A stretch of 39,440 bases of DNA. It comes from Desulfurobacteriaceae bacterium. GTDB taxonomy: Bacteria; Aquificota; Aquificia; Desulfurobacteriales; Desulfurobacteriaceae. The stretch is from assembly GCA_039832905.1 (NCBI GenBank), contig JBDOLX010000114.1:1-39440 (forward strand), given 5' to 3'. The notes beneath the pieces are model-generated. The model saw nothing but the letters and a program-made list of their open reading frames with translations. It did not search any database and was not told the DNA's origin. A program made the translations under genes and the position numbers. Shown here piece by piece: positions 5,261 through 39,440 of this stretch. Position 1 is the first letter of the stretch. The number at the start of each line of letters is the position of its first letter.

Positions 5261-5337
5261 AACTGTAAAGTTTCCGTAGAAGGAATTTGTTTGAAGGCAT
5301 ACATTAGCAGAATCTTAACCATAAGTTGAGGGGAGTT

Positions 5338-7382: not shown

Positions 7383-7546
7383 AATGAACTTTGAAAGAAT
7401 AAAAAAAGAAATAGAGACAAAAGATTTAATTGTGATAAAGGCTTTGCTTGAAATTTTAGAGGTTGAAGAAAAAAAGATAGGGCTACAGAGACCCAAAGGA
7501 ATAAAAGACGATATAAGAAAAATTTTTGATCGCTGGGGAAAGGAAT

Positions 7547-9493
7547 ATGATCCTGAAGAAAGTTAAGGTTAAGAACTTCAGACAATATTATGGTGAACAA
7601 GAACTAGAGTTCTCTACGGATCCAGAAAAGAATATTACCTTAATCTATGGAAAAAATGGTGCAGGAAAAACTTCTCTTTTTATGGGTATAAACTAGGTTC
7701 TCTATGGTTCGTCAGAGGTAAAAATAGAAGGTAAAAAAGTTAATAAGAAGGCAATAGATGAAGCAAAAGAAAAGGGTGAAGAGTTTGTAGAATCAGAAGT
7801 TGTTCTTACTTTTTCTCATGAAGGGATTGATTATCAAATAAAGCGAAAAGTGGTGTACGATGTAAAAGAGGATATTGAACATCCGGAAGAAGTGCAGATG
7901 GAGAAGATTTTTCCAAAAGTTGATGAAATATCAAATTCGTTGATAGCCTTAAATCCTATATTACCCCCAAATGTTCGAAGTTACTTTTTCTTTGACGGGG
8001 AAAAGATAGATGAATTTTCTAAACCTGATCACGACAAGGAAGTAAAGGAAGCTGTATACAAGGTTCTTGGTATTACTTTGATAGAACGGGCGATATCTCA
8101 TGTAAGAGATATTTTAAGAGAATATAACAAGGAACTGGCAAAAAAATCCTCGGGTAGATTGAGGGAGTTAAGAGAAAAATACAATGATGTTTTACAAGAA
8201 AAAGAAAATTTAGAAAACGAATTGAAGGAAGCAAAAGAAGAAAGGGAAGCACTGGAAGCTAACATAAGGGAGGTGAAGAGTAGGCTTAGGGAAATAGAAG
8301 AAATCCAACACTTGATAGAAAGGAGAGATGCTTTAGAAAGTAAATTAACAAGTATGGAGTTGGAACTTTCCAAAATCTATTCAAAACTTAGGAAAGTAAT
8401 CAATAAAAGTTTCCTTTTAATAGGTAGTATTTCTATAGAAGAGGCTTATGAAATACTAAGTAAGGAAATAAAAAATTCTGCTGATATTCCTAAGAAGTTT
8501 TTATCAAAGTTAATAGAGAAAATCTTAGAAGAAAAGGAATGTATATGTGGTTCAGCATTAACTCCGGAAATGAGAAGAAAACTTATAATGAAAAAAGCGG
8601 AAATTGCCCAAATGGCGAAAAGTGATAAGACAGAAGAAATAGTAAGTTCCATTATTGCAGAAATTTCAGGATTGAAGAGTAAAAAGGAAACTATACATAG
8701 TGAATTAATTTCTCTTTTTAGTGAGAAAATGAGATTAATGGATAAGATTCAGAAAACCTATGAGGCTTTAGATGAAGTGGATCAGCAGTTAAGTAAAAAT
8801 GAGTTGGAAGATGTAAGAAAACTTCAAGGTTTACTTGAAGAATATACAAAAGATTTGGGAAGATATACTCAAAAGATAGAAAGCATAGAGGAAAAAATAA
8901 AGGAAAAAAATGAAGAAATATTGTTCCTACAGAAGGAGATTAGTAAGGAAGAAAAGAAAGAGAGAGAAACTAATGAATTAACTAGGAAGAAGAATCTAGC
9001 GCAGGCAGTTTTACATCAACTGGAGACTCTCTATGAAAAGTTGTCTTTCAACTTAAGAAAAGAGATAGAAAGTGAAGCTACAAAGATATTTAAGAAGTTG
9101 ATTAGGAAAAAGGAATTCTTTAAACGTATAGAACTTTCTGAAGACTATCTCCTTAAGCTTATAGATGCCTTTGAAGATAGAGAATCTAAAAGAGAACTTT
9201 CTGCTGGAGAAAGACAAGTATTAAGTTTAGCTTTCATATTAGCATTGGCAAAAGTATCAAAGAAAGAAGCTCCTGTAGTTATGGATACTCCTTTTGGTAG
9301 ATTGGATCCAGAGCATAGAAGTAATATTCTTCAAGAGATTCCCTATTTAACACGTCAGCTTGTTCTTTTTGTAACTCCTTCAGAAATGACAGAGTCTCTT
9401 AAATTGCTTATACAAGATAAAGTAGGAAAGGAGTATGAACTTGATTTTAATGAACAGGAAAAATATACAAAAATTGTTCCTTTAGAGAGGTAG
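7547..9493 (+). pseudogene. DndD-like SMC/ABC-family ATPase (648 codons) with a single in-frame TAG at 7694-7696. The annotated 547-aa ORF (7850-9493) lacks the Walker A segment
   Basis: ATG 7547 preceded by an AAAGGA RBS. MILKKVKVKNFRQYYGEQELEFSTDPEKNITLIYGKNGAGKTSLFMGIN-stop-VLYGSSE... gives a Walker A GKNGAGKTS. Continuous frame into 7850-9493. Long coiled-coil middle. C-terminus LSAGERQVLSLAFILALAKV...VMDTPFGRLDPEHR resembles the DndD signature (DTPLGRLD). Confidence 0.75.
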
Positions 9494-9902: not shown

Positions 9903-12027
9903 ATATTTGTTCGGAGGAGCGGAAGTGGGAGTAGAATATAAAAAGTATGAGTTAGAGAAATTCTTTGATCTTATAGATAGTGGAAAGATAGTTCTTCCAG
10001 AATTTCAAAGAGGATATGTATGGTCAATAGGAAAACAAAAAAGATTTCTTGCTAGTATTTTAGTAGGATTGCCAGTTGGAAGTACTCTTCATATTGAAGG
10101 TTCAGCTGGTGACTTTGTTGCAAGAGCTATTTGTGAACGACGAGAAGTGAACCCGAAAGAAGAATGTGAATATCTTTTAGATGGTCAGCAGAGGATTTCT
10201 ACTCTTTATAATATTTTTCAAGATATTTATGAAAAAGAAGAAACAAGGGATTGGAAAAAAGTCTTAAATTCTCTCTTTGATAAGCTTAGATATAGATGGT
10301 TTATTAAATTATCAAAGGAAGATGATATCTTTGGACTTAAAACATTAAAATTTGATCCAAGTAAGCTTCTTACTCTTGAACCTAGAAGAGTGGAAGAGTA
10401 TATAGAGGTGAAGAAAATAGAAGATATAAAGGAAGAAAAAATACAGAAAAAAAATGCTTGGTACCATCCTGCATTTATTCCTATAAAAGATGGACGAAAA
10501 CTTACAGGTCGGTTATCTGAATTGGAAAAGGCAAGATTGGCTGCAGAGGAATATTTAGTACCTTTGTTTGAAATTAGAAAGAAAGAGTTAGGATTGCATA
10601 GGCAAGTTCTTAAGCAAATTGCTAAAAGAAGAGTAGAAGAATTACAAGCAGAAGTAGCTGATGGAAAACTTAAGTTGAGAGATATATTGTCAGATATTCA
10701 TCCAGATATAGATAACTTGGACGAAAGAACTATTAATGAAGTATGGACAGAGTTGCAAATTAGTTGGGTAGAGGATGTTTCAAGATATCTAGAAGGATTA
10801 CTAAAAAGAGAAATTCCTGTTGTACTTTTACACAAAAATGAAATAGGTAGAGCTGCTGTTATTTTTGAGGAATTTAATACTGGAGGAACTAAGTTAGAAG
10901 ATTTCGATTTGTTTGTTGCTAAAGCAGCTAGAGTAGATTCAGAGAGGTCACTTGTAAGAAGGATAATGAATGTTCTAGATAGATCTTTTGATACTACTCA
11001 TTTAGAAAATGAGGCTATAAATTGGAAAGCAAATTTATTTACTCCAACAAAAGAGTTAAGTAAGAAATTTAAAAAGATATTTTTGAATTCCTTATCGTTA
11101 ATAGTATTTTCTCTGGAAAAAGGAGAAGAGCTTTCGAAAGAAATGACTCTTAGTGGTAAGATTCTTTCTTTACAACCTGAAGATGTAGTTAAATATACTG
11201 AGAGAGTAACAGAAGCTATTGTGAAAGCTTTTGCGTTTCTACAGTTGAAGTGTGGGCATGTTAATGAAAAATCTATTAGTTATGAATATATGATTTTACC
11301 AATAGTGTATGTGTTCTATTGTAAAGATGACATATGGTACGATAATAGCATTCTGAATAAGATAGGTGCTTGGTTTTGGGGATCTTTGTTTGCTGGTATG
11401 TATAAAGAAAGACAGGATGATCAGTTAATTAAAGATATAAAAATGCTTAAAGCTTGGTTAGTAGATGGAGAAGAAGATTCAGAAGAATTTAGGCGTTGGA
11501 AAACTGTTGTAACAGATAAAATATTTAATAGGGAAGGTTATTCAGACTGGGAGACACTGTTAAATAAAAATCCGGAAACAGAAGCACCTAAAGCTATTAA
11601 GAAAGCTATACTGAACTATATTCTTAGTAAGAAACCTGTAGATTTTTTACCGGATCAAGAGATTAATCTTACTGCGTATAAGTGTGCTAATGGTAATTTT
11701 AAGTTGGAAGAGCATCACATTATACCACTAGCAAGTGCAACTAAAATAGGAGAGTCTACAAAGAAGATAAGAAAAGAGAAAAAGCATATTTTGAATAGTC
11801 CCCTCAATCTTACATATATCTCTGATTCAGCAAATTTAAGAATCAGAGATAAAAGAATAGATGAGTACTTTAACGAGTTGGGACACTTTAAAATAGGTAC
11901 CCACATTTTTCCAACGGATATAAGGAAGCCTCAGAATGACGAAGAAAGAAAAGAAATTCTTAAGAAACGTTTGGAACTTTTGAAACAGAGTGTGACCTCT
12001 GAAATCAATATGTTACTAAATTCCTAA
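9895..12027 (+). CDS. DUF262 (ParB/Srx-like NTPase) + DUF1524 (His-Me finger nuclease) protein, GmrSD/SspE-like
   Basis: N-terminus has LPEFQRGYVW and LLDGQQRISTL. C-terminus has EEHHIIPLASA...NSPLNLTYISDSAN typical of DUF1524. The track start is TTG 9895; a GTG at 9925 preceded by GGAGGA is the more likely start. 3' end overlaps the dndE 3' end by 23 nt (convergent). Confidence 0.8.
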   Translation: MGRYLFGGAEVGVEYKKYELEKFFDLIDSGKIVLPEFQRGYVWSIGKQKRFLASILVGLPVGSTLHIEGSAGDFVARAICERREVNPKEECEYLLDGQQRISTLYNIFQDIYEKEETRDWKKVLNSLFDKLRYRWFIKLSKEDDIFGLKTLKFDPSKLLTLEPRRVEEYIEVKKIEDIKEEKIQKKNAWYHPAFIPIKDGRKLTGRLSELEKARLAAEEYLVPLFEIRKKELGLHRQVLKQIAKRRVEELQAEVADGKLKLRDILSDIHPDIDNLDERTINEVWTELQISWVEDVSRYLEGLLKREIPVVLLHKNEIGRAAVIFEEFNTGGTKLEDFDLFVAKAARVDSERSLVRRIMNVLDRSFDTTHLENEAINWKANLFTPTKELSKKFKKIFLNSLSLIVFSLEKGEELSKEMTLSGKILSLQPEDVVKYTERVTEAIVKAFAFLQLKCGHVNEKSISYEYMILPIVYVFYCKDDIWYDNSILNKIGAWFWGSLFAGMYKERQDDQLIKDIKMLKAWLVDGEEDSEEFRRWKTVVTDKIFNREGYSDWETLLNKNPETEAPKAIKKAILNYILSKKPVDFLPDQEINLTAYKCANGNFKLEEHHIIPLASATKIGESTKKIRKEKKHILNSPLNLTYISDSANLRIRDKRIDEYFNELGHFKIGTHIFPTDIRKPQNDEERKEILKKRLELLKQSVTSEINMLLNS

Positions 12028-12373
12028 AGTCTTCAAGCTTTTTAACCCTATTATAGAGGAGATCTGCTCCTCTATTTATATGTGCTCTGAAAAGCTCAAG
12101 TAGAAGTTTTTCATTTTGCAAATCAAAGCCATCTTTGTAAGCCCTTTGCTTAAAAAGACAAATCAAGATAGTGTCTAAATCACCAAGTAAAACATGCCTC
12201 ATTAACTCTTGACCATCTTGTTTATACCAATTCGGATCTGGTAATGTGGGGTCTTTCAAAGATAGAACCAAACCAAATCTACAGAGAATATTAGGAGTAA
12301 GACCTGTTCTTCCTTTTAGTATAGAAAGTTTTTGGCTAACTTTCTTGTCTAGGATAATCCTGTTAAATTTCAT
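12005..12373 (-). CDS. dndE: DNA sulfur modification protein DndE
   Basis: 122 aa, immediately downstream of dndD with a GGAGAGAG RBS. N-terminus MKFNRIILDKK...LKGRTGLTPNILCRFGLVLSL resembles the DndE family. Confidence 0.65.
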   Translation of the reverse strand: MKFNRIILDKKVSQKLSILKGRTGLTPNILCRFGLVLSLKDPTLPDPNWYKQDGQELMRHVLLGDLDTILICLFKQRAYKDGFDLQNEKLLLELFRAHINRGADLLYNRVKKLEDFRNLVTY

Positions 12374-12392
12374 TTTCTCTCTCCTAAAGCTA

Positions 12393-14327
12393 CTAATTCC
12401 AGAAGTATCCTTTTTGCACTTTTGTACACATACAATCTTCGTCGTAGACCAATAGATAAGAGTGTGATATATGTTTCTTCAATATGTTGAAAAGTTCTTT
12501 GTCCACTTCTACATTAGTAGACAAAATAATCACTTGATGGCTAATTTGTGGGAAATAATTATTAGCAAGATTTTCTCTGTGTTCGTTATCCAATCTACCT
12601 AAAGGAGTGTCTATAATCACTGGTAACTTTTTACCCGAGGTTTTTGCAAGTCCCCATAAAAACGATATTGCAAATATTTGTCTTTCTCCTGAAGAGAGTC
12701 TATCAATAGGAATTTTTCTATTATTCAAGTCAAAAAGAGTAATTTCAAAAGTTTCAGGGTCTATATGAAGATCTCTTATAAAATTCTCTTTTCTTTTAAG
12801 CTTATAAAGGGCATCTAGTATTTCTTTTTCCAAGATTTTTACCTTTCTTTTTATAAATTCGCTTCTGAACCTGTTAAGAACCTTCTGTGACTTTTCTATT
12901 AGGGAAATAACTCTTTTCTTCTTTGTCTTTTGTTTAATGAAGTTTTCTAATTTTTCTATCTCCTTTTCTATCTTTCTCTTCTCTCTTTCTAACTTATTGA
13001 CTTCTTCTTCTAACTGTTTCTTTTTAATTTCTGCTTCTATCTTTTCTTGGTCTAGCTTAGATATTTTTTCTAAATAGGGTCTGATAACCTCTTCGTCTGG
13101 AACATTTTGTAAACTGCTCTCGACTTCTAGTAACTCTTCTTCTAAGGTTTCTAATTTACGAAATAGTTCTTTAGCTTTATGTAAAGTGTTGGTTTTTAGG
13201 TTCTGTACTGCTATTTCTAGTAGTCTGTTTTCTCTTTCCGAAAGATCGTGAATGATGTCTATTTTAATTTCTTTTTTTACAAAGAATAGTCTTTTTATAT
13301 TTTCTAGCGTATCTTTATCTAAAGGAATGGATTTCAAAATACTTTCAAGTTCTTTGTACTTATTTTTTAGTATCTCTTCCTCAAACTTTATTTTTTTTAT
13401 CTCTTTTTCCATTTCTAGCTGGGCTAGAAGTTCTTCTAATAGATTTATACCTAGTGCAAGAGGTAAATCTTTGGAAGAAATTTCTCGTATCTCATTCTTA
13501 ACTTCTTCTATTTCGTTTTCCAGGAATTCTTTTTTGGATAGGTTTCTTTCATAATTTCTAAATAACTCTCCACCTTTTTCAATAAACTTTCTTTCTGCTT
13601 TCTTTAGTTCTTTTTCTAAATTGATTCTCTTTATTTCTAAACTAGCAATTTCCTGTTTTTTCTTTCCTAACTCTTCTTCTATTAGTTCTCTTTCTTCTTC
13701 CAGTTTGTTGAGTTCCTTTTGAATTTCTTCAGAGAAATCCTCTTGATGAAGATATCTTTTTCTTAATATTTCTAAACTATAGTTTAGAGTATCTACTACT
13801 GTAACTCCTAAAAGAGACTTGACGTCATTCACAAACTCTACTTCTGAAAAGTCTTCTGCAAGTTTTTCTATTTTCTCTCCATCAAAGAAGAAAAAGTTAA
13901 CCAAACTTGGAGGAATAATATCAGAAATAAATTCTTGCCATTGGTTTTTAGGAATTTCCTTATAAACTTCATTGTTTTTGTAAAGAAGAAATTCTTCTTT
14001 AAAACTTTTATTAAGATCCCATTTCCTAATTACTTTGTAAGTATCTTGAGATTCTAAGGAAAAATAAACAAACTCAAGTGATATTTGGGCAAGGTTCTCT
14101 CCTTTATGTATAAGTTTTCGAATAAACTCTTCATATTGTTTCTTTGTGTATCCGTAAATATTGTTACCGTATAAACATAACTTCACAGACTCAAGTAATG
14201 TAGTCTTTCCTGTTCCGTTTTTTCCACCAAACAAAATAATGTTTTTTCCTTTTCTTGGCTTTAAATCAAAAACATTTCTTCCTTTGTAAAGACCTATATT
14301 TTCTAAGGTTAAAGAAGTTAAAATCAT
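12393..14327 (-). CDS. dndD: DNA sulfur modification protein DndD (SMC-like ABC ATPase)
   Basis: Walker A GGKNGTGKTT; long coiled-coil. C-terminal signature LSSGERQIFAISFLWGLAKTSGKKLPVIIDTPLGRLDNEHRENLANNYFP characteristic of DndD. 4-nt overlap with dndC. Confidence 0.85.
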   Translation of the reverse strand: MILTSLTLENIGLYKGRNVFDLKPRKGKNIILFGGKNGTGKTTLLESVKLCLYGNNIYGYTKKQYEEFIRKLIHKGENLAQISLEFVYFSLESQDTYKVIRKWDLNKSFKEEFLLYKNNEVYKEIPKNQWQEFISDIIPPSLVNFFFFDGEKIEKLAEDFSEVEFVNDVKSLLGVTVVDTLNYSLEILRKRYLHQEDFSEEIQKELNKLEEERELIEEELGKKKQEIASLEIKRINLEKELKKAERKFIEKGGELFRNYERNLSKKEFLENEIEEVKNEIREISSKDLPLALGINLLEELLAQLEMEKEIKKIKFEEEILKNKYKELESILKSIPLDKDTLENIKRLFFVKKEIKIDIIHDLSERENRLLEIAVQNLKTNTLHKAKELFRKLETLEEELLEVESSLQNVPDEEVIRPYLEKISKLDQEKIEAEIKKKQLEEEVNKLEREKRKIEKEIEKLENFIKQKTKKKRVISLIEKSQKVLNRFRSEFIKRKVKILEKEILDALYKLKRKENFIRDLHIDPETFEITLFDLNNRKIPIDRLSSGERQIFAISFLWGLAKTSGKKLPVIIDTPLGRLDNEHRENLANNYFPQISHQVIILSTNVEVDKELFNILKKHISHSYLLVYDEDCMCTKVQKGYFWN

Positions 14328-15760
14328 TCTTTGTTAACCTCTCTTAAGATTTCTTCTTCTGTTCTCCATTCTTCGTTAAGAATTTTTTCAAGTTTCTTGA
14401 TAAGGGAGGTTTTTCTTGAGGAAAAAGCATTATACTGGCAAGTGTTAAGTAACTTGATTATTAGTCTTGGGTCTACATTTTCTTCTGTTGCCAATGACTC
14501 TATTAATTTCCTATCTTCCGCTGAAAAGACTCCAATATCTTCCTTTGGAATTTCTAACTCTTTTTCATAAACTTCTTTATAGATTTTTGCGACGCTATCT
14601 TCCCAATCACCTTCTTCCAGTTTCCAAATTCTTCTAATTTCTAAAAGTTCTTCAAGAGATATTAATTTAATTTCTTCTTCATAGGGATTATTCTCATTTA
14701 TCTTCTTCTCAGTTTCTAAAAGTTCTTTTAGGAAAATTTTTCTATATTCAAACTTGTAAGGTCCTCTCCCTAATTTCTTAGTTCCATTTCCATAGCTATT
14801 TCTTAAAAAGTATATACTTCCATCTCTTCTTTTGTAATCACGATAGATATGCTTATTTTCTGGATCTTGAGTTTTAACAAGCAATTCCCTAAATTCTTGA
14901 AGAGGGCGCAGCCAATTTTCCCCACTTTCTATAAGAGAACTAAGAGATTTTTCATTCTTAACAACAGTACAGACCCAACAACCGAATCTACTGTTACCTC
15001 CTGTCTGTTCATCAGCTGCAACTAAATTTCCAACTATAATAGGTGGTTCTCCCGCATTTGCTTGTTTATACATTTCAAATAACTCTTGATTGTTTCCTCC
15101 CCATGGAGACTCAAAATTAAGTAAATAATTCCAAACATCTTCAACTGTCCAGTCTTCTATAGGCGTGTAAACTAGAGCTCCAGGAAGAGTTGAATGTCTA
15201 GATAATCTACTATTTTCTATTTTGTGTTCATTTATCGTTTTCTCTCTATTGAGGCTTTCTGCCTTTCTAACTCCTAAAACTACAATAACTTCTCCATATT
15301 TACTTACTGTTTCAATTACAAATCTATTTGAAGGTTCTATCTTTAGTCTATCTGTGCACCATCTAAATTCTTTAGTGGGGGCAGGGTAACCTCTTCCAAT
15401 CAAATTAACCCAAAAAGTATCTGAAATTCGGGGACATACTTTTACAGCTTGAATAGGTAATCCTTTTTCTTTAGCTGCTTTATTAATAAGGGTAAGATTT
15501 TTATCTACGTAGTTTATGACTTTAGGGATTTCTATTAGTGTATCGGAAGAGAGTACGTATATAGGCTTTCTTAACTTATTTCTCGGCATTCTTTCTAAAG
15601 CTTCCCAAACCAATTGTAATGTTGCTGTAGAATCTTTTCCTCCGCTGTACCCTATTATCCACGGATAGCTATTTGAGAAATAAATATTCTCGATCTCTTT
15701 GTAAAGAGTATCTAAACTTTTTCCACCAAATAGAAAGGATTTTTTAGATTTATGTGACAT
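14324..15760 (-). CDS. dndC: DNA phosphorothioation protein DndC (PAPS-reductase-like ATP pyrophosphatase)
   Basis: PP-loop SGGKDS near the N-terminus; cysteine cluster RFGCWVCT; 478 aa. Operon position between dndB and dndD. Confidence 0.85.
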   Translation of the reverse strand: MSHKSKKSFLFGGKSLDTLYKEIENIYFSNSYPWIIGYSGGKDSTATLQLVWEALERMPRNKLRKPIYVLSSDTLIEIPKVINYVDKNLTLINKAAKEKGLPIQAVKVCPRISDTFWVNLIGRGYPAPTKEFRWCTDRLKIEPSNRFVIETVSKYGEVIVVLGVRKAESLNREKTINEHKIENSRLSRHSTLPGALVYTPIEDWTVEDVWNYLLNFESPWGGNNQELFEMYKQANAGEPPIIVGNLVAADEQTGGNSRFGCWVCTVVKNEKSLSSLIESGENWLRPLQEFRELLVKTQDPENKHIYRDYKRRDGSIYFLRNSYGNGTKKLGRGPYKFEYRKIFLKELLETEKKINENNPYEEEIKLISLEELLEIRRIWKLEEGDWEDSVAKIYKEVYEKELEIPKEDIGVFSAEDRKLIESLATEENVDPRLIIKLLNTCQYNAFSSRKTSLIKKLEKILNEEWRTEEEILREVNKE

Positions 15761-16796
15761 ATTTTTCTCCCAATATCTTCTTTAGAATGAACTCTGCTGT
15801 AGCTTTTATGTTTACGTTAGCTTTACTTAATCTACCTTTGTTTAGTGCTATTCCTTCCCACTCAGGATTATTTCTATGCCAGTCTATATCTTTCAGCCTA
15901 GAAAGAATTTCTCGTAGGTTTAATTGCTTTTTGATAATTACGCGACCTACTATAGCGATAGCGTTCAGAAAAAGTCCATGAGAATGGATGTATTCTTGTC
16001 TTGCCTTATAAGCAGCTAGTTCGCCTTTTTTTATCTTTTCCCACTCAGGAATGTTCCTACCTACTTCTTCCCAGAATTCAAAAGAAAGTATTCTGTCTTC
16101 TTCGCTTATTTCCACTTTGTTGCCTTTCTTATCTAGAAATTCTTTGGTAGCATGATAAATGCTACTTAGTGTAAAAAGTTTATTTGATCTATTTGATATA
16201 GAGCTTCTTTCATACTCTACTAAGTCTTTGAAATAGTAAACGTTTTCTGCAAGATATCTAGTTAACTCCGCCATCTGATCTCTATAGTCATATAGGATAC
16301 TAATGGATGGCGTTGGTTTTACGGAATACCTGTTCAAGTCAGTAAATATTTGCTGACTTCGTTCTAGTCCTAAATCAATAAAAACAACCATTGAAATTGT
16401 TTCGTAACCTAGTTCCGGATTTTCTTGAAGGGCTTGTTTTATAGCTTCAATCCTGTGTTGTCCGTCATTTATTATGATTCTTGAGTTTTTATCTATTTTA
16501 AGTTTTCCTATTTGATAGTTTTCTTCACTAATGGCTTCAAATTCCACTTTCCCATCAACGGAAATAGTGATTGAAGAAAAAACGTAAGTGTATGGGTTAT
16601 CCAAAATGTACTTTTTTATTTCTGGAATCCTTCTTTTATTGAGAATTCTCTGAGCCCTTAGTTTAGGTGGAAGTAAAGGAATGTTTATCTCTTTAAATAT
16701 CTCTGGAATTAGTTTTAATGGACACATTACAGTGTAAAATTCTTTTCCTGCTTGAATTCCTCTAACAGCAGGAAAGGTATAAAAGGAATTTCTCAT
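15750..16796 (-). CDS. dndB: DndB (DGQHR-domain regulator of the dnd operon)
   Basis: INDGQHRIEAI (DGQHR motif). N-terminus FPAVRGIQAGKEFYTVMCPL resembles the DndB family. Overlaps the dndC start. Confidence 0.8.
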   Translation of the reverse strand: MRNSFYTFPAVRGIQAGKEFYTVMCPLKLIPEIFKEINIPLLPPKLRAQRILNKRRIPEIKKYILDNPYTYVFSSITISVDGKVEFEAISEENYQIGKLKIDKNSRIIINDGQHRIEAIKQALQENPELGYETISMVVFIDLGLERSQQIFTDLNRYSVKPTPSISILYDYRDQMAELTRYLAENVYYFKDLVEYERSSISNRSNKLFTLSSIYHATKEFLDKKGNKVEISEEDRILSFEFWEEVGRNIPEWEKIKKGELAAYKARQEYIHSHGLFLNAIAIVGRVIIKKQLNLREILSRLKDIDWHRNNPEWEGIALNKGRLSKANVNIKATAEFILKKILGEKYVT

Positions 16797-16919
16797 AAGT
16801 ACTCCTATACCTTTAATGGAAGTTAACTAAAAAACTTCCATCTAATTATACATGCAAACTTCCAGTGAAGAAACTACCTTCTATGTATACTCAGCACAAG
16901 AAAAAGGAAACTATAAAAT

Positions 16920-17010
16920 TAATACATGTATTACATGTGTATTATACATATATTTTATCAGTAAAATACAACTAAACTACATGTTAATCACATGTATAAT
17001 ACATGTACTA
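16920..17010. promoter_or_regulatory. Cluster of five (T)ACATGT(A) palindromes upstream of dndB; candidate operator/promoter
   Basis: ATACATGTAT 16922-16931, TACATGTGTA 16932-16941, CTACATGTTA 16978-16987, CACATGTATA 16990-16999, ATACATGTAC 17000-17009. Located 125-210 bp upstream of the dndB start codon, in the only intergenic gap of the minus-strand gene block. Confidence 0.4.
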
Positions 17011-17119
17011 CACCTGCAAGGTTATTACAAATCTCTTTCAAAACCACTTAAGTGTTCTTCCACTGATAACTTTCATACTTTACTGAAAGATCAACTTAAA
17101 GCTTTATCTCACTCAGAAT

Positions 17120-18913
17120 TTAAAAAGCAAACTCATACTTTACGACCGATCCATCCATTCCAGCCGAAATTAAATAATTTCCATCGTTTGAAAAATCGAT
17201 GGAGTTTACAAAGCCAATATGGGCAGGAAGTTTCAGAACAAGGTCACTATTTTCTAAGTTAAAAACGAGAAGATTTCCTTCAAATGTTCCACACGCTAAG
17301 AGGTCGTTACTTAAAAATTTTAAAGTGGAAGGTTCTTTCACTTTTAAGCTAGCTTCTGTGAAACCTGTTTCTGTATCTACGATTTCTATTTCTCCGTTAT
17401 TTTTACCAACTGCAAGAAGTTTTCCATCGTTAGAAAATGTAAAAGTTGATACTTCTTTTCCAAAGTTTTTTATTAACTTACGATTTGTAATGTTTTCAAG
17501 TATAAACTCGGAATTTTCGTAAAAGTAACAGCCCAAGAGAAAGTTATCTCTGAAAGTCATTGCTGAAAGACAAAAGTCACCAATTGGAATCTCAGAGGTT
17601 TCCCATGTTTTAGTATTTATCAACACTACAGTACCGAAACATCCTGCTGCAAGGGTTGTTCCGTTAGTTGAAAAAGTTAAAGAACCTACAAATGTTGGAC
17701 ATGGAATTTTTTTGATAACTTCTTCCTTATTGGTATCAACAATAACAACCTTTTTATCTTCGGTACCACAGGCTAAAAGTCCTGTTTTGGAATTAAATGC
17801 TGCTGATTCTATAAATCCATCAGTTTCAGCTATCTCCTTAAAGCTTCTATCTTCAAAACTATATCTAAAAATCTTTGTATCCGCCACCAAAGAAAAGGAC
17901 TCCTTCGAACAAAATACAAACTTTCCAGGTTCAGTAGGATCTATTTTCCAGACGATTTCGTCTTTATCTAAATCCCACAGCTCAATTCCAAGACTTCCTG
18001 CTGCAAGGTATTTGCCATCGGGACTGAAAGATATTGAGTAGATCTTTTCAAACTTTCGCATCCCTTTTTTGTAGGGAAGGCTACTTTTTAACTTTTTAAT
18101 TTCTTCCAGAGTTTCTAAATCAACAAGACTTATTTCTCTAGCTTTTCCAAGGGCAATTACCTTTCCATTAGGACTGAAAACAGCAGATACGGAATTATCA
18201 AAAGTTTCTAAAACCTCTCCTGTTTCAATATCTACAAGACACGCTTTCTTCTTCCTTTCTGAGAGTTTTTTATTATCCATTTGGTGAAAAATCATTCCAC
18301 AAAGGAGAAGCTTTCCATCGTGACTTATATCAAGGGAAAAGAGAGAACATTTTGAATTTTCATGAATACTAAACGATTTAATTTCTTTTCCTGTTTCGGC
18401 ATTAAATATTCTTATTGTTTTGCCTTCTGCGTACATTATTCTTTTACCGTCAGGGGTAAAAGTTAAATATCCTCCACACTCAATCCCTTGTTCCCATAAG
18501 ACATCTCTTGTCTCTAAATCCCTAAGCTGGAGATAAATTAAAAACTCAATTCCTTTTTCTTTTCGTATTTCTCTTTTAGTTATAACAGCAAAAGTTTTAC
18601 CGTTAGGATTCACTTTAACACTTTCTACAAAGTCAAAGTTTTCTGCTATAAAGTCTGTAGATTTACCGCTTTCAATATCGACAAAATCAAGGATTTCATT
18701 TGCCCTCAGAACTAATTTACTGTCTATTGTGATGTCGATATCGTAAAGCCAAGCTTTATTACTCAGCGTCCAGAGAAGAGTTCCACTTTCTACATCCCAA
18801 CATTTCGTAAATGAGTTACAGGTAGAAATCAATTTTTTTCCGTCAGGCGTGAAACTAAGATGTTTGACCCATGAAGGATGACTGGCTGATTGAATAAGTT
18901 TTTCAACTTTCAT
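17120..18913 (-). CDS. WD40 beta-propeller repeat protein, 597 aa (about 14 blades), no other domain
   Basis: Repeating ~40-aa units with FSPDGK/SNDGK...G.....W(D/E) patterns throughout. AAGGGAG RBS. Confidence 0.85.
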   Translation of the reverse strand: MKVEKLIQSASHPSWVKHLSFTPDGKKLISTCNSFTKCWDVESGTLLWTLSNKAWLYDIDITIDSKLVLRANEILDFVDIESGKSTDFIAENFDFVESVKVNPNGKTFAVITKREIRKEKGIEFLIYLQLRDLETRDVLWEQGIECGGYLTFTPDGKRIMYAEGKTIRIFNAETGKEIKSFSIHENSKCSLFSLDISHDGKLLLCGMIFHQMDNKKLSERKKKACLVDIETGEVLETFDNSVSAVFSPNGKVIALGKAREISLVDLETLEEIKKLKSSLPYKKGMRKFEKIYSISFSPDGKYLAAGSLGIELWDLDKDEIVWKIDPTEPGKFVFCSKESFSLVADTKIFRYSFEDRSFKEIAETDGFIESAAFNSKTGLLACGTEDKKVVIVDTNKEEVIKKIPCPTFVGSLTFSTNGTTLAAGCFGTVVLINTKTWETSEIPIGDFCLSAMTFRDNFLLGCYFYENSEFILENITNRKLIKNFGKEVSTFTFSNDGKLLAVGKNNGEIEIVDTETGFTEASLKVKEPSTLKFLSNDLLACGTFEGNLLVFNLENSDLVLKLPAHIGFVNSIDFSNDGNYLISAGMDGSVVKYEFAF

Positions 18914-18978
18914 CTCTTTTCTCCCTTAAAAGGTTTGTATCTTAAGCTATTGAAAGCTTAAAAAACTCTTATTTTTCA

Positions 18979-19326
18979 CTATGTTTCCCCTTGGATTTCA
19001 TAATGTTCATCCCATCTCAGTTCAACATCTTCTTTTAGGTTGTAAAACTGACATACGGACTCAATTAAGTTTTTGTTATTTAGGACTTTTTTAGACGAAA
19101 GGATTACAAAGCGTTTTTTCCTCTTATTATAGACTACTCTGCCCCTTGGAATTTCGTCATATTCTAACAGTCTTAGTTGCGGATAACGGAGAATAAATTC
19201 ATCCCAATACGTAAAGTGATCACAAGACGGCTGAACCGTGTCTCCGTAATCTTCACCATTTTCAACTGGTTCCTTAAAACCGTCAACTTTGTTGTTTACT
19301 ATCCAGAAGACGCCAATATGAGGCAT
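18979..19326 (-). CDS. Hypothetical 115-aa protein in the FtsZ-like/DUF262/WD40 operon
   Basis: AAAGGA RBS. Gaps of 33 and 66 nt to its neighbours on the same strand. No recognisable motif. Confidence 0.55.
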   Translation of the reverse strand: MPHIGVFWIVNNKVDGFKEPVENGEDYGDTVQPSCDHFTYWDEFILRYPQLRLLEYDEIPRGRVVYNKRKKRFVILSSKKVLNNKNLIESVCQFYNLKEDVELRWDEHYEIQGET

Positions 19327-19358
19327 CTAAAATCCTTTTTTTTAACTCATTCTTATTT

Positions 19359-21704
19359 CTAAAATCTACAAGCGAAAAACATAAGTATCTTGTAATATCT
19401 TATATCTACAAGAAGTTTGAACGCCTCTACTATATATAAATAGTCCTCTCTTACTCCCCTTTGCTCCAATATTTGTTCTAACTCCTTGAAGCTTCTAAAC
19501 TCATCTCTCAACTTTAACTCATTTTTCAACTTGTTCTTTAACCCTATTATCTTTTTTGCAAAATCTTTAGTACCTTTAATATCTGGATAATTTTCTCCTG
19601 TTTTTTTCTCGTATGTTTCCGCCTTATCAAATATAGAACGGTTACCTTCACTTATATTTAGTTTAGACTCTACTAAAAAGATGTTTCCTATATTATTTAC
19701 CCATTTTTCATAGTCCCAGTCTCTTTCTTTTTCTTCTTCTAAGGAGTAGGGAAGATCATTTTTATAAAAGTCCCTCTCTATTCTTTTAAATGCTTCTTTT
19801 AGTAAGTCTTTTTCTTGCGAATTAACGGAAAACAAGTGTTCTCTCTGTAGACCTCTTGGTCTTTTAGATAAGGGCTTTAGTATGTTTTTCTCAAATGATG
19901 ACTTATCATAGTCAAAATTAATTCTTTCAAATTCAGCTAAAACGTAAAAGTAATCCTCTCTAAAGTCATAAATGGGATATTTATAGAAATCCTTTCTATA
20001 ACATTTGTTAGATTGAGAACTGATAAATCTATACTTTCCTTCCTTTAGATGATTGGAAAAGTTAAAGAGTCCTCCCCAAGGACGTTTACCAAGTTTCCAA
20101 ACAAACATTTCTGAAAACTCTAAAATATTGAGTATATAAGCTCTTTCTGTTAAAAACTCTTTCAAACACGAAGATTCATGTTTGAGATACTCTTCAAGGA
20201 ATTCGGCAGAATCTTTAAATTTTTTCTTCAAGTAATCAATTCTCTTTTCTAATCTCTCCTTGAAGGATACAAGTCCTAACTTTTTCTTCCTTTCTTCTAA
20301 GAGAAACTTCTGTTCCTCTTCAACATCAAAAGTTTTGTTAAACTTAAGTTCCGAGTTAAGATTCAAAGCTATGTAATGTGTAAATCTTGAAGCCCCATAA
20401 ATGCCCAAGAATTCTCTAACGGAATAAGAAAGTTCATTACTCAGAATATCAATGCCTGATTTCTCTACATTGGTAATACTTTCTTTTAATGTTGAGTAAT
20501 ACTGCTTAATTTCCTTTAAACTTTCATACAAAACACTAAATAGTTTCTTAGCTTCACTTTTTAGATCGTAATTTATAAGATCCCTAAAGGCTTTATTTAT
20601 TGCTTGATATATAGTATCTTCCCCTGATTCATACCATATATCTATTGAGTACTTAATACTTCCATCCAGAGAAGAACTTTCCTTCTCTTTCTTAATTACA
20701 TCTATCACATATCTATAGAAACTTTTTCCACTTACTGCATTAGATCTATATAAAAGGAGATTTAAGAGATGCATTGTAGTGGCTTCTGCTTCTTTTGCAC
20801 TTTTGAAAACCATGAATCTTTCTGAAGTTAAGGACTCTAAAAGTTCGTAGATGTCTGCAAAAAGTTCATTAATATCGTTGTTTTTTTCATTTCTTACTTC
20901 TTCCCCAAATAATAAGTTAGCATAATAAATCATTAAGCTTTTAAGTTTTTCTAAGGCAGTTAATCTTTTACCTCTATCCGTCTGAGAAACAAAGATGTTT
21001 ATAAGTTCAGAAAATGCTGTTTCCTCTTCTTTTTTCGTTAGTTCTCTTACATTAATAACTGTTTTGATAACTTTTAGATTCTCAAGGGATTCATACAATC
21101 TACTACTACTATGGTTTGCAAGATTTTCAATAAAATAACAAAAAGCTCTCCTCATTAATTCTTGACTGTAAGTTTTAGGACATAGCTTTTCAATGTTTTT
21201 AGCATTAGCAAGTTCTTTCAAGAAATCATAGTCTATCGGAGATCCAAGAAAAATTCTTGGTTCAGAATCCTCGACGAACAGTTTTTTCTTTATTTCACTT
21301 TCTTTACCCATTCCTTTCAACTTTCGTAGCATAGCAAATAAAAATAACCATAAAGTTGTTAATCTTTGTTGTCCATCTATAATGAGATAAAACTTGGTTC
21401 TTTCATTTTCCAAGTTTTTAATCTGCTGGTAAACTTTTTTATTTACAAAATTCTTTAACTCATCTAAAGCAACCTCTGCCAAGAACACAGTACCAAAGAT
21501 ATAGTTTCTTATATCTCTTTCAGATACATTTTTGATATCAAAGAAAAAATCCTCTATCTGTTTTTTTTCCCAAGCATAAGGTCTTTGATAATGTGGTATG
21601 AGATACAAAACATTACCTTCCAATAATCGAGGAAACTCTGTTAATTCAACATCAAATATTTTCTCATTTTGCTTTTTAGAATCCATACAGTCCAATTTTT
21701 TCAC
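19359..21704 (-). CDS. DUF262 + DUF1524 (GmrSD-family) protein, 781 aa
   Basis: LIPHYQRPYAWEKKQIEDFFFD and YLIIDGQQRLTTLWL (DUF262). C-terminus LQREHLFSVN...NIGNIFLVESKLNISEGNRSIFDK (DUF1524-like). Start codon uncertain (GTG 21704, TTG or ATG a few codons in). Confidence 0.8.
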   Translation of the reverse strand: MKKLDCMDSKKQNEKIFDVELTEFPRLLEGNVLYLIPHYQRPYAWEKKQIEDFFFDIKNVSERDIRNYIFGTVFLAEVALDELKNFVNKKVYQQIKNLENERTKFYLIIDGQQRLTTLWLFLFAMLRKLKGMGKESEIKKKLFVEDSEPRIFLGSPIDYDFLKELANAKNIEKLCPKTYSQELMRRAFCYFIENLANHSSSRLYESLENLKVIKTVINVRELTKKEEETAFSELINIFVSQTDRGKRLTALEKLKSLMIYYANLLFGEEVRNEKNNDINELFADIYELLESLTSERFMVFKSAKEAEATTMHLLNLLLYRSNAVSGKSFYRYVIDVIKKEKESSSLDGSIKYSIDIWYESGEDTIYQAINKAFRDLINYDLKSEAKKLFSVLYESLKEIKQYYSTLKESITNVEKSGIDILSNELSYSVREFLGIYGASRFTHYIALNLNSELKFNKTFDVEEEQKFLLEERKKKLGLVSFKERLEKRIDYLKKKFKDSAEFLEEYLKHESSCLKEFLTERAYILNILEFSEMFVWKLGKRPWGGLFNFSNHLKEGKYRFISSQSNKCYRKDFYKYPIYDFREDYFYVLAEFERINFDYDKSSFEKNILKPLSKRPRGLQREHLFSVNSQEKDLLKEAFKRIERDFYKNDLPYSLEEEKERDWDYEKWVNNIGNIFLVESKLNISEGNRSIFDKAETYEKKTGENYPDIKGTKDFAKKIIGLKNKLKNELKLRDEFRSFKELEQILEQRGVREDYLYIVEAFKLLVDIRYYKILMFFACRF

Positions 21705-21723
21705 CTCCCCTTTTCACTTCATT

Positions 21724-22695
21724 CTACCAAACCGCTTTACTTATCCCTGTTGCTATAACGGTTATCTCTACAGAGTCTTCTATTTCTTCCTCTATGTTAA
21801 CTGCAAAGAAAAAATTTGTGTTGTCTCTCTTTGTCCTTTCTTCTACTAGTCTTACTGCCTCATAAACTTCGTCAAGTGTCAGATCCATTCCACCTTTTAT
21901 GCTTATCAACACGTAGCTTGCCTTCTCAAGTTGAACATCTTTTAGAAAAGGACTATTTATTGCTTTTCTTGCAGCCACTATGCCTTTGTCTTTCCCAGTT
22001 GCTTTACCGCTACCAATAAAAGCATAACCACCATTACGTATCACGGTTCTTACATCAGAAAAATCGATGCTAATAAGTCCAACTTTCGTTATGGGTTCAA
22101 CTATTCTTTTTATTGCTTGGTAAAAAACATCATCAATCAATAACCTAAAAGCGTCCAATACACTCATATCATTAGAAGCAACATCAAGAAGTTTTTGATT
22201 AGGAACAACGATTAAGGTATCCACAAACTCTTTAAGTTTTCTTATTCCAATCTTTGCGCGTTCGTGTCTTTTCTTTCCCTCAAAATTGAAAGGATAAGTA
22301 ACGATACCAACAGTTAAAATTCCCATATCTTTTGCGACTTTGGCTATTAAAGGTGCTACTCTTGTTCCTGTTTCCCCTCCCATACCGGTGATAATAAACA
22401 CTAAATTATAACCCTCAATAGCTTTTCTAAGCTTAGATTCTTCCTTTAAGAGTGACCGTTCTTTTACTGCCTGTTTTTCCTCAGCCTCAAGAAATTCGAT
22501 AAAACCTTCTTCTATCTGAATCTTAATTGGTCCTTGAATTCTCAAAAGTGTCTGAACGTCTGTATCTATAGCTATAAACTCAATTCCTTTAATTCCTTTA
22601 GCAAAAATCATTTCAACGGTATTACAACCACATTCTCCTATTCCAATAACTTTAATAGTTGGTTTCTGTGATGTTTTATCTACTATGCCAGACAT
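21724..22695 (-). CDS. FtsZ paralog (tubulin/FtsZ GTPase fold) with degenerate T1 and T3 loops, no C-terminal tail
   Basis: Long collinear similarity to canonical FtsZ: GMGGETGTRVAPLIAKVAKDMGILTVGIVTYPFNFEGKKR, then VPNQKLL...SVLDAF, then T7-loop SIDFSDVRTV, then GYAFIGSG, then SPFL. The glycine box is GIGECGCN instead of GGGGGN, and the T3 GLGAGxxPxxG segment is replaced by a charged stretch EEGFIEFLEAEEKQAVKERSLLKEESKL. ATG at 22695 preceded by AGGG; the track starts at TTG 22740. Confidence 0.8.
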   Translation of the reverse strand: MSGIVDKTSQKPTIKVIGIGECGCNTVEMIFAKGIKGIEFIAIDTDVQTLLRIQGPIKIQIEEGFIEFLEAEEKQAVKERSLLKEESKLRKAIEGYNLVFIITGMGGETGTRVAPLIAKVAKDMGILTVGIVTYPFNFEGKKRHERAKIGIRKLKEFVDTLIVVPNQKLLDVASNDMSVLDAFRLLIDDVFYQAIKRIVEPITKVGLISIDFSDVRTVIRNGGYAFIGSGKATGKDKGIVAARKAINSPFLKDVQLEKASYVLISIKGGMDLTLDEVYEAVRLVEERTKRDNTNFFFAVNIEEEIEDSVEITVIATGISKAVW

Positions 22696-23024
22696 CTCAA
22701 CTACCCTATAATCCAATATATTAAAGCTTACAACAAGCAATAATAAGAATAAATTTGGACAGAAAGTGACCTATAAAAAGGTTTTCTTCTTTAAAAGCAA
22801 GTCTTAAAGAAAAACATCAAATCTGTTCCAAATTGCTTTGAAAATATCTATGGAAAACTTGAAAACAAAGTTTAATGTGTTAAACTAAAATACACTAAAT
22901 TAGTTTAATGGATTACTAATAGATATAGCTAAAAGACTTAAGGTTCCTGAATGAATTCTTCTACCTTCTTAAAGTCTATCTAAACCTCTATGCTGTATAT
23001 GTTTTATGCGAATGAAACTCCCCG

Positions 23025-26051: not shown

Positions 26052-26444
26052 ATGTTCACTTATGCATATATAAGAGTTTCTACAGATAAAGAGGAGATAG
26101 AAAATCAACGACTTGAGATTCTTAGATATGCTAACGAGAAAAAGTTCTGTCATCAAAAAGTTGACTTTTCCTGTCAAAAAATTAGATTCTCTTTAAGAAG
26201 GATAAAAGAAGATCAAAAAGCTATAAAAGATATAAAAGAGTTAAAAGGAACTGTAAGTGATAGATTTTCAGTTAAGTTTGATTTCATAAAAGGAATAGAA
26301 CCTGGAAAGATCAAGTCAAAAGAACAATTAGAGAAACTGTCAGAAAGAGACTGTGTGAAAATCCAGAGGAACAAAAAGAGAACTCATAGATTGAAGAAGC
26401 AAACAACTAAAAGCTATGAAGGAAAAAGGAACATGAGAGTGTGA
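26052..26444 (+). pseudogene. Chimeric ORF: serine-resolvase N-terminus (first ~33 codons) fused to a C-terminal fragment of a MazE-like antitoxin and the start of a MazF remnant
   Basis: MFTYAYIRVSTDKEEIENQRLEILRYANEKKFCHQK aligns with the resolvase start. IKEDQKAIKDIKELKGTVSDRFSVKFDFIKG parallels 27514-27732. DNA is ~95% identical to 27365-27480 and carries a deletion relative to the 27361-27939 locus. Confidence 0.7.
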
Positions 26445-27985: not shown

Positions 27986-28594
27986 ATGTCTACTTACGCT
28001 TATATAAGAGTTTCTACTGATAAGCAAGAAACAGAAAACCAAAGATTTGAAATTCTTAGATATGCTAATGAGAAGAAGCTAGGAAATGTTGAGATTATAG
28101 AAGAAACTATAAGTGGTAGGAAAAGTTGGAAAGTTAGAAAAATAGGTGCCCTTGTCCCTATGCTTTCAAAAGGGGATGTTCTTATCATTACTGAGCTTTC
28201 AAGACTTGGTAGATCTATGCTAGAGATTATGGAAATCTTATCTATCCTTCTAAGAAAAGGTGTAGAACTCCACGTTGTTAAAAATAGGCAAGTGTTAAAA
28301 GACGACTTGCAAAGCAAAGTCTTTGCAATGGCTTTCTCTATAGCTGCAGAGATAGAAAGAGAGCTAATCAGTCAAAGAACAAAAGAAGCTTTGAGAAGGA
28401 GAAAAGCAGAAGGTAAACCTCTTGGTAGACCTAAAGGTAGCTATTCCTCCAGACTAGACAAATACAAAGACCAAATAGAAGAGTTTAGAAAAAAAGGTGT
28501 ATCAATAGCATCTATTGCCAAGATTCTTGAAGTTCCTTATACAACTCTATATAGCTACCTAAAAAGACGAGAAAACTCAGATTCGAACTTCTAA
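27986..28594 (+). CDS. Serine recombinase (resolvase/invertase family), intact
   Basis: Catalytic YIRVSTDKQ with Ser10. C-terminal HTH SIASIAKILEVPYTTLYSYL. 202 aa. AAGGGAG RBS. Confidence 0.9.
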   Translation: MSTYAYIRVSTDKQETENQRFEILRYANEKKLGNVEIIEETISGRKSWKVRKIGALVPMLSKGDVLIITELSRLGRSMLEIMEILSILLRKGVELHVVKNRQVLKDDLQSKVFAMAFSIAAEIERELISQRTKEALRRRKAEGKPLGRPKGSYSSRLDKYKDQIEEFRKKGVSIASIAKILEVPYTTLYSYLKRRENSDSNF

Positions 28595-36411: not shown

Positions 36412-36652
36412 TCCCCTCTATCCCGTCTGATTTCGCTTCTAACGAATTCCAAGTTAAATAAAGGTATTACTTCCCCCCCTCTATCTCGTCTCAGAGACCC
36501 AAATCCGTTAACGAGAGAGTGTCTCTTTTCCAGTCTTAGAACTGTATCCCTGATTGATAGCAATAAGCAATAACAGTCAAACTTTAAGTCAAAACTTCTG
36601 AGGGCAGAAGTAATGCTGATTGACAAGTTGGCAGATTGGCAGGTCTGCTTAC
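36412..36652. repeat. Conserved ~245-bp noncoding block, copy A (counterpart of 39353-39440+1-175)
   Basis: See the feature at 1-175. Contains hairpin CTTCTGAGGGCAGAAG (36595-36610) and GCTGATTGACAAG / CAGATTGGCAGG direct repeats. Confidence 0.8.
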
Positions 36653-39347: not shown

Positions 39348-39352
39348 AAAAT

Positions 39353-39440
39353 CCTCTCTATCCCGTCTGATTTCGCTTCTGACGAATTCCAAGTATAAAG
39401 GTATTACTCCCCCCTCTATCTCGTCTCAGAACCCCCAATC
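39353..39440. repeat. 5' part of conserved block copy A'; also 19-nt terminal redundancy (39422-39440 = 1-19)
   Basis: CCTCTCTATCCCGTCTGATTTCGCTTCTGACGAATTCCAAG... aligns with 36412-36500. The final 19 nt are identical to the first 19 nt of the window. Confidence 0.85.

Follow-up and report, generated by a model that had tools for sequence, protein, structure and literature searches.

Do four adjacent genes upstream of a dnd operon make up one machine, or have separate units come to lie side by side? The question is raised by contig JBDOLX010000114.1 of a Desulfurobacteriaceae metagenome-assembled genome (MAG), the whole of which (39.4 kb) was analyzed and is called the window here. Four open reading frames (ORFs) on its minus strand (17120-22740) encode, in the direction of transcription, an FtsZ paralogue (FtsZl), a GmrSD-family protein, an uncharacterized 115-residue protein (p115), and a WD40-repeat protein. 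The original prediction took them for a single novel system upstream of dndBCDE in a defense island, and most of what it described holds: the four ORFs are co-oriented, separated by gaps of 19, 32, and 65 nucleotides (nt), and followed after 323 nt by dndB, and they lie between MazEF/VapBC modules and dndBCDE. The single-system reading is not supported, as the set does not recur and the only close homologue of FtsZl has no DUF262 gene beside it. We lean modestly towards another reading, in which the 5.6-kb cluster would be a mosaic of three or more cassettes that move separately, and not one four-part machine: FtsZl and p115 would form a recurrent unit, the GmrSD-family gene would be autonomous, and the WD40 gene would travel with p115.

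A Shine-Dalgarno-like sequence is found 5' of each gene of the cluster, and the intergenic gaps contain no terminator-like sites. The short gaps and the lack of terminators would be compatible with co-transcription of the four genes, and the AT-rich stretch between the mazF stop codon and FtsZl, the sole sizeable upstream gap, is the likely promoter region. A scan for promoter and terminator consensus sequences was uninformative, with sites no more numerous than, or fewer than, in shuffled sequence. Read from a TTG codon, the FtsZl ORF (21724-22740) encodes 338 residues; the start annotated by NCBI corresponds to M16 at 22695 and gives a protein of 323 residues.

The FtsZ paralogue and its origin

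FtsZl contains both domains of canonical FtsZ, Tubulin (PF00091, E=1.5e-34) and FtsZ_C (PF12327, E=6e-22), and narrowly misses the NCBIfam equivalog TIGR00065 (293.7 bits for a cut-off of 295.2). Its GTPase core had been described as near-canonical, which the alignment with 47 canonical sequences does not bear out: among the 120 positions with at least 95% conservation in canonical FtsZ, 40 are altered, and between residues 61 and 125 the changes affect 17 of 30 conserved positions. The phosphate-binding loops are degenerate. The T1 loop reads GECGCN for GGGGGN, the T3 loop FLEAEEKQAVK for GLGAGGKPEIG, and the T4 loop, which is the tubulin signature, GGETGTR for GGGTGTG, with substitutions that include G21E, G22C, G68F, G70E, G72E, G108E, and G112R and with five Gly-to-Glu changes across the three loops. 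The T5 (PFNFEG) and T6 (PNQKLL) motifs are conserved, and T7 (SIDFSD, compared to NxDxxD) keeps both aspartates (D211 and D214), the asparagine being replaced by serine. The C-terminal two-thirds of the protein show 57-77% window identity to the canonical consensus. FtsZl has no C-terminal linker or peptide: it stops seven residues past the globular core, where its relatives run 35-60 residues further.

The best matches of FtsZl are all chromosomal FtsZ proteins of Desulfurobacteriaceae (52-57% identity, the closest from Desulfurobacterium, Thermovibrio, and Phorcysia), those from other phyla not exceeding 48%. In a neighbor-joining tree, it forms a long branch that is sister to the Desulfurobacteriaceae FtsZ clade. 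Identity and tree position therefore indicate that FtsZl was captured from the host lineage long ago, evolved fast from then on, and did not arise by recent duplication of a chromosomal ftsZ. Besides the degenerate T1, T3, and T4 loops and the missing tail, FtsZl differs from these proteins by its plasmid location among toxin-antitoxin (TA) and defense genes. Tail-less, lineage-specific duplicates beside a housekeeping FtsZ are known from magnetotactic bacteria (FtsZm) and Rhizobiales (FtsZ2 and FtsZ3). FtsZl resembles them as a host FtsZ duplicate without the C-terminal peptide; as far as we know, they have an intact GGGTGTG, are chromosomal or chromid-borne, and have no p115-type partner.

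The sole close relative of FtsZl among 5.8 billion proteins is encoded by an incomplete gene on a metagenome contig of 1.3 kb (L001), with 95.5% nucleotide identity. Over the 193 shared codons, the ratio of nonsynonymous to synonymous substitution rates (dN/dS) is 0.21, and the gene is therefore under purifying selection. The C-terminus of the L001 copy (ATGFDEE...) is canonical-like and looks ancestral, while that of the window copy reads ATGISKAVW.

The glycines that hold the phosphates are replaced by Glu, Cys, Phe, and Arg, and FtsZl is predicted to be unable to bind GTP normally. Since the C-terminal peptide is absent, FtsA-type anchors could presumably not hold it at the membrane, and it would be unable to build a Z-ring. 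These two predicted losses would make FtsZl a fold-preserving mimic of FtsZ rather than a division protein.

The cluster genes in other loci

On L001, the order of the genes is FtsZl, an unrelated spacer of 321 bp, and p115, and the GmrSD gene is absent. The break points of this indel fall within the final seven codons of FtsZl and the initial three of p115, and no WD40 start is present in the 80 nt left after p115. The synonymous divergence (dS) between the window and L001 is 0.12 for FtsZl and 0.39 for p115, a three-fold difference that points to recombination between the two genes.

The GmrSD-family gene also stands apart in composition, with a guanine-cytosine (GC) content of 30.3%, compared to 35.5% and 37.4% in the flanking genes. 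Of the DUF262/DUF1524 architecture originally proposed for its product, the N-terminal part is well supported: DUF262 (PF03235) is matched at E=1.1e-30, the D110-G-Q-Q-R114 motif is invariant in homologues with both domains, and the DUF262 protein 9jfl of the PDB is matched at 3e-24. The C-terminal part remains below the Pfam threshold, since GmrSD_C/DUF1524 (PF07510) was reached with the isolated C-terminus only (E=0.0015, 18.8 bits for a cut-off of 23), although the catalytic motif is present, E622-H623...N674...N683 being invariant in the full-length alignment with homologues that bear PF07510. The best homologue shares 24-27% identity and there is no close relative. In PADLOC, the protein matches HEC-06, Orf5, and the N-terminus of SspE, and its similarity to SspE, in PADLOC as in the PDB, is limited to about residues 5-140. 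It thus resembles GmrSD, BrxU, and SspE in the DGQQR motif of DUF262, the EH...N...N C-terminus, its length of 781 residues, and its position next to dnd genes, as SspE lies by ssp genes. It differs from them in its identity of 27% at most, the sub-threshold C-terminal domain, a similarity to SspE that covers roughly the first 130 residues, and the absence of sspABCD. These features point to a divergent, stand-alone, putative type IV restriction nuclease. The enzymes of the GmrSD, BrxU, and SspE family work as single proteins, and nothing ties this nuclease to FtsZl as its effector.

The WD40 gene is found with p115 in two other loci, one on a contig of a Desulfurobacterium MAG (L008) and one on a contig from a metagenome (L038). 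Both have the order MNT-HepT-p115-WD40 without an FtsZ-like or GmrSD gene, and the intergenic region between p115 and WD40, with its ribosome-binding site, is conserved between them and the window. The WD40 protein matches its L008 counterpart at E=2e-287 and shares 77% amino acid identity with that of L038. A self-built blade profile and the spacing of about 42 residues bear out the 14 blades first counted, which form two seven-bladed propellers (7+7) and of which three are degenerate. The protein has no other domain, many Pfam propeller families match it, and PADLOC returned a marginal repeat match only. Fragments of 54 residues in its 90%-identity cluster were judged spurious, as the contig they belong to is eukaryote-like and carries a PiggyBac-type transposase. 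In L038, the sequence of about 1.5 kb on the 3' side of the WD40 gene (5290-6829) contains no coding-strand ORF of 60 residues or more and no tandem repeats.

In further relatives (L002-L004), the order is MNT-p115-PLD/DUF87, and in others p115 follows an AAA gene. A megablast search of PLSDB with the whole cluster gave no match. Because of the L001 indel, the GC content of the GmrSD gene, the unequal dS, and the presence of p115-WD40 without FtsZ or GmrSD genes, the cluster would be best described as an assembly of cassettes. The tidy four-gene "operon" would then be a product of cassette shuffling, which calls for caution in reading adjacency within a defense island as a system.

The association between FtsZ and p115 recurs on contigs of anaerobic-digester origin (L042-L045). 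A 361-residue protein (P0261) encoded there is a fusion of the N-terminal GTPase domain of FtsZ with a p115 domain and lacks the FtsZ C-terminal domain entirely. About 1.7 kb downstream of its gene lies a gene for a 330-residue FtsZ-like protein (12758-13750 in L043), followed after 3 nt by one for a 156-residue p115 homologue (13754-14224). The 330-residue protein has both FtsZ domains and no tail, and it shares only 28% identity with FtsZl; the two FtsZ-like lineages are therefore far apart. None of the three FtsZ-like proteins has the tail, and in all of them the T1 and T4 loops are altered, reading GDGGLN and GDDTGSG in the digester copy and GNGGIG and GGATGSG in the fusion. A tail-less FtsZ-like protein beside or fused to p115 in two distant lineages would be hard to ascribe to chance. 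The MAGs from which the fusion is reported have been classed as Erysipelotrichia, Pusillimonas, and an unclassified bacterium. This binning into three unrelated taxa therefore suggests a mobile element, and the digester contig is probably a mis-binned one.

The 115-residue ORF itself is real and matches no family in Pfam, NCBIfam, PHROGs, or PADLOC. It has 18 close relatives, and its profile retrieves 1501 cluster representatives at E≤1e-3 (543 at E≤1e-10), mostly stand-alone proteins of 110-160 residues. Between the window and L001, its dN/dS is 0.15, which, like the value for FtsZl, speaks for a functional gene and not a decaying one. Four residues (H37, R61, D106, and H108) never vary, and a D-E-H-Y motif is found at the C-terminus; the His/Arg/Asp/His set suggests catalysis or ligand binding. 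The AlphaFold2 model, with a pLDDT of 91.7, is an alpha/beta structure with no fold match in the PDB, including no winged-helix or other DNA-binding fold, and a comparison of the profile with PDB sequences yielded only noise (E~0.8). Three candidate identities were rejected: a HEPN toxin, because p115 is alpha/beta and not all-alpha and the fold is absent among the structure matches, and an ADP-ribosyltransferase and an RNase of the T1 or RelE type, whose folds are likewise absent among these matches.

Other relatives of p115 are fused to an ADP-ribosylglycohydrolase (P0256, a distant one) or to an alpha/beta hydrolase. The family is present on 74 PLSDB plasmids, 59 of them from Acinetobacter and some of these from clinical isolates, near Doc, BrnTA, and macro-domain genes. 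Elsewhere its neighbors include WYL regulators (three loci), AAA ATPases, a leucine-rich repeat (LRR) protein, RtcB, and DUF2130. The contigs of four relatives (P0273, P0271, P0298, and P0237) were too short or had no FtsZ-like neighbor. Nothing was found in IMG/VR with p115 or with the FtsZ-p115 fusion, nor in the INPHARED phage collection with a p115 homologue; the FtsZ matches in INPHARED are canonical ftsZ, apparently derived from hosts.

On plasmid pTR11_1 of Acinetobacter sp. TR11 (L039, 715-2244) and on L040, p115 homologues stand beside Phd/Doc and a macro-domain gene, or beside BrnTA, and a link of p115 to ADP-ribose metabolism is possible. In a Desulfobacterales MAG (L031, 2-1912), a gene for a 637-residue LRR protein lies directly 5' of the p115 homologue, an arrangement that parallels p115-WD40 in that a repeat protein adjoins p115. 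In three loci (L052, 993-2007; L053; L054), the 215-residue product of the gene 5' of the p115 homologue is weakly p115-like (E~2e-7), suggesting tandem p115-like genes. In two others (L050, 205-1912; L051), a gene with a PHP domain (DnaE N-terminal) directly follows a p115 relative. The arrangement recalls the neighborhood of the FtsZ-p115 fusion, where a DnaE-type DNA polymerase III alpha subunit is encoded as two genes (596 and 807 residues; L043, 3565-9921), separated by a REase-ARP/PD-(D/E)xK gene and an FHIPEP-like gene, with two UDG-like genes nearby.

Possible roles of FtsZl and p115

In the cassette reading, FtsZl would be a derivative of host-lineage FtsZ that acts by protein-protein contacts, mimicking the FtsZ of the host, and FtsZl and p115 would be a TA-like or sensor-effector couple on mobile elements. 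The mimic may neutralize or gate p115, or be controlled by it, and either partner may be the toxic one; p115 would contribute a small alpha/beta protein with enzyme-like invariant residues. The GmrSD-family gene would be an autonomous cassette for a modification-dependent type IV nuclease, recombined between FtsZl and p115. The WD40 protein is probably a binding scaffold or sensor for p115, with which it travels in the nearest relatives.

FtsZ is the central protein of bacterial division, and factors of phages and plasmids often target it. Target mimicry is well known from plant immune decoys and, to our knowledge, has not been described for the bacterial cytoskeleton; an FtsZl that copies host FtsZ without the GTP pocket or the tether would be a natural target mimic. 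A functional assignment of p115 would annotate many genes, with at least 1500 clusters and dozens of Acinetobacter plasmids concerned.

For a regulator that is derived from FtsZ, does not polymerize, and is joined to a repeat domain, the closest functional precedent is the chloroplast protein ARC3 (PMC12232670), and CbtA, described as an FtsZ-directed toxin (PMC3632139), sets a precedent for addiction modules that target division. FtsZl-p115 would resemble CbtA/CbeA (a type IV TA pair) and Tre1/Tri1 (which involves ADP-ribosylation of FtsZ) as a small, two-gene mobile module aimed at FtsZ, but none of these encodes a copy of FtsZ. No sequence or fold similarity was found between p115 and CbtA, CbeA, Tre1, or any ADP-ribosyltransferase. 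Tri1 is of the ADP-ribosylglycohydrolase class, the type of enzyme to which one p115 relative is fused. A mobile FtsZ mimic linked to p115 has no match among the described systems in PADLOC or the literature searched, in line with the original remark that the gene combination is unfamiliar; the models of PADLOC-DB v2 match neither FtsZl nor p115 and include no multi-gene system that contains them.

A wider proposal, which we offer tentatively and hold to be less probable than the cassette reading, is that FtsZ copies paired or fused with p115 form an undescribed two-component class on mobile elements. The mimic would bait or neutralize an enzymatic p115, and growth arrest, plasmid addiction, or phage defense would thereby be linked to surveillance of the Z-ring or interference with it. 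The p115 protein would then represent a new effector fold, also used with WD40, LRR, MNT, ADP-ribosylglycohydrolase, and hydrolase partners.

Several facts weigh against FtsZl and p115 as a functional couple within shuffled cassettes. The evidence is comparative and the pair occurs in two lineages only, the second of which was reached through p115, with the ascertainment bias that this entails. In L001, FtsZl and p115 are about 280 nt apart and not tightly coupled. About 35 of the 40 distinct p115 loci examined have no FtsZ-like neighbor, and the neighbors are not conserved; p115 clearly does not need an FtsZ mimic. It has no structural or sequence similarity to a known toxin, antitoxin, or FtsZ-binding protein. 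For the degenerate N-terminal half of FtsZl the window is the only source, since the L001 gene is truncated. T7 is lost in the digester FtsZ-like protein and kept in FtsZl, so that no single interface is common to the FtsZ-like proteins. Finally, co-transcription and cooperation of all four genes in this particular plasmid would be compatible with the short gaps and the lack of terminators.

The retention of the C-terminal domain and of the T7 aspartates next to a destroyed nucleotide face, in a plasmid-borne gene under purifying selection, would also suit an FtsZl that acts on its own as a dominant-negative modulator of division, with p115 as a mere neighbor. It would cap host FtsZ or co-assemble with it and delay division, for example in aid of plasmid inheritance. 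End-capping inhibitors of FtsZ filaments are known (PMC9897490), and a precedent by analogy is again ARC3, which combines an FtsZ-like domain with MORN repeats and directly inhibits Z-ring assembly (PMC12232670). Like ARC3, FtsZl is FtsZ-derived, presumably non-polymerizing, and associated with a repeat domain; unlike the eukaryotic ARC3, which has its repeats in the same polypeptide, it is accompanied by a separate WD40 gene two genes away that tracks p115. ARC3 is also devoid of the GTPase motifs. Capping through the T7 face would fit the FtsZl of the window, but not the digester copy, which has no T7, or the fusion, which has no C-terminal domain, and hence would not be general. Moreover, the repeated pairing with p115 and the fusion in the second lineage argue for a functional link, and we regard a division modulator acting alone as rather unlikely, though it is the strongest of the alternatives.

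An integrated four-gene defense system, as first envisaged, would have FtsZl as a sensor of, or decoy for, phage factors directed against FtsZ, the WD40 protein as adaptor, and the GmrSD-family protein as effector. The co-orientation, the short gaps (19-65 nt) free of terminator-like sites, and the location in a defense island are what such a system would show, the dead nucleotide pocket and missing tail fit a non-functional target mimic, and repeat proteins adjoin p115 (WD40 here, LRR in L031), like the sensors of many conflict systems. Yet no GmrSD gene accompanies FtsZl in its one close relative or the p115-WD40 pair in either of its two, the composition of the gene differs, and enzymes of its family act singly. 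With no PADLOC model for FtsZl, p115, or their combination, the four-gene system is without comparative support, and we consider it improbable.

Still more doubtful is the view that an ftsZ was captured and that FtsZl is what is left of it, without function and in decay, in a cluster without joint meaning. Loss of the tail and of conserved motifs would agree with decay, as would the extreme rarity of the family (two contigs among the proteins searched) and the frameshift and in-frame stop in the Pbe genes of the same plasmid. However, the reading frame is intact, the dN/dS over the shared codons is low, the C-terminal two-thirds are well conserved, and an independent lineage has a comparable design, likewise degenerate and without a tail.

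Although a tubulin-superfamily gene with a small partner on a mobile element recalls PhuZ and is the hallmark of type III partition (TubZ/TubR/tubC), a TubZ-like segregation motor with p115 as adaptor is hardly credible: TubZ and PhuZ are active GTPases distant from FtsZ, whereas FtsZl is a true FtsZ derivative with FtsZ as closest relatives and phosphate loops that make GTP-driven treadmilling unlikely, p115 has neither the winged helix of TubR nor any other DNA-binding fold match and mostly occurs without a tubulin-like partner, and the plasmid, as noted originally, already carries a ParA.

The replicon and its other genes

The first 19 nt of the contig are identical to its last 19 nt, and joining the two ends (1-170 and 39352-39440) rebuilds a second copy of an internal repeat of about 230 bp (36412-36643), with 77-89% identity. 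The molecule is therefore circular, with a size of about 39.4 kb. It encodes a ParA, serine recombinases, recombinase fragments, and resolvases, together with MazEF, two PIN/VapBC pairs, an MNT gene, and HipA-like, SPFH/NfeD, and ankyrin genes. From the ParA, the recombinases, and the load of TA and dnd genes, it follows that the window is a small plasmid or similar element laden with addiction and defense genes. The features of the cluster and its flanks are collected in Table 1.

Table 1. Positions of the cluster genes, their flanking regions, and the dnd operon in the window
Feature	Position	Strand	Basis
dndB, dndC, dndD, dndE	12005..16796	-	Pfam DndB 1e-119, PAPS_reduct (DndC), AAA_23 (DndD), DndE
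Intergenic region 5' of dndB, 323 bp	16797..17119	-	ACATGT-rich inverted repeats and TATAAT box, by sequence reading
WD40 protein (MEO2069602.1), 597 aa	17120..18913	-	Pfam WD40 and propeller families
p115 (ABGX27_08880), 115 aa, uncharacterized small-protein family	18979..19326	-	No library match
Segment absent from L001 (unrelated 321-bp spacer instead), 2.43 kb	19319..21745	-	blastn break points and junction alignments
GmrSD-family protein, DUF262 and DUF1524-like, 781 aa	19359..21704	-	GmrSD_N 1e-30
FtsZl (MEO2069605.1), tail-less FtsZ paralogue, 323 aa	21724..22695	-	Pfam Tubulin and FtsZ_C
AT-rich non-coding stretch, 284 bp, mazF stop to FtsZl	22741..23024	-	Sequence reading

The dndBCDE operon probably has its own promoter within the 323-bp region upstream of dndB, where the inverted repeats that contain ACATGT may be operator sites of DndB. 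A Pbe-type module (PbeA, a DndD-like PbeC, dnd_assoc_4, and a DUF262 protein) is convergent with dndBCDE. This module looks degraded (5326-7382 and 7383-9493), while the dnd modification genes are apparently intact: PbeA is split by a frameshift near 7000-7056, and the P-loop N-terminus of the DndD-like PbeC (GKNGAGKTS) is in frame and severed by a stop at about 7690. Either true decay or errors in the MAG assembly could account for these defects.

A 423-residue ORF without a Pfam match (37583-38854) is flanked by the repeats of about 230 bp and may encode Rep. A serine recombinase gene is present once intact and twice as a partial copy (737-1066, 26052-26444, and 27986-28594). The partial copies match parts of the intact gene with 80-95% nucleotide identity and suggest repeated recombination and rearrangement of the accessory region.

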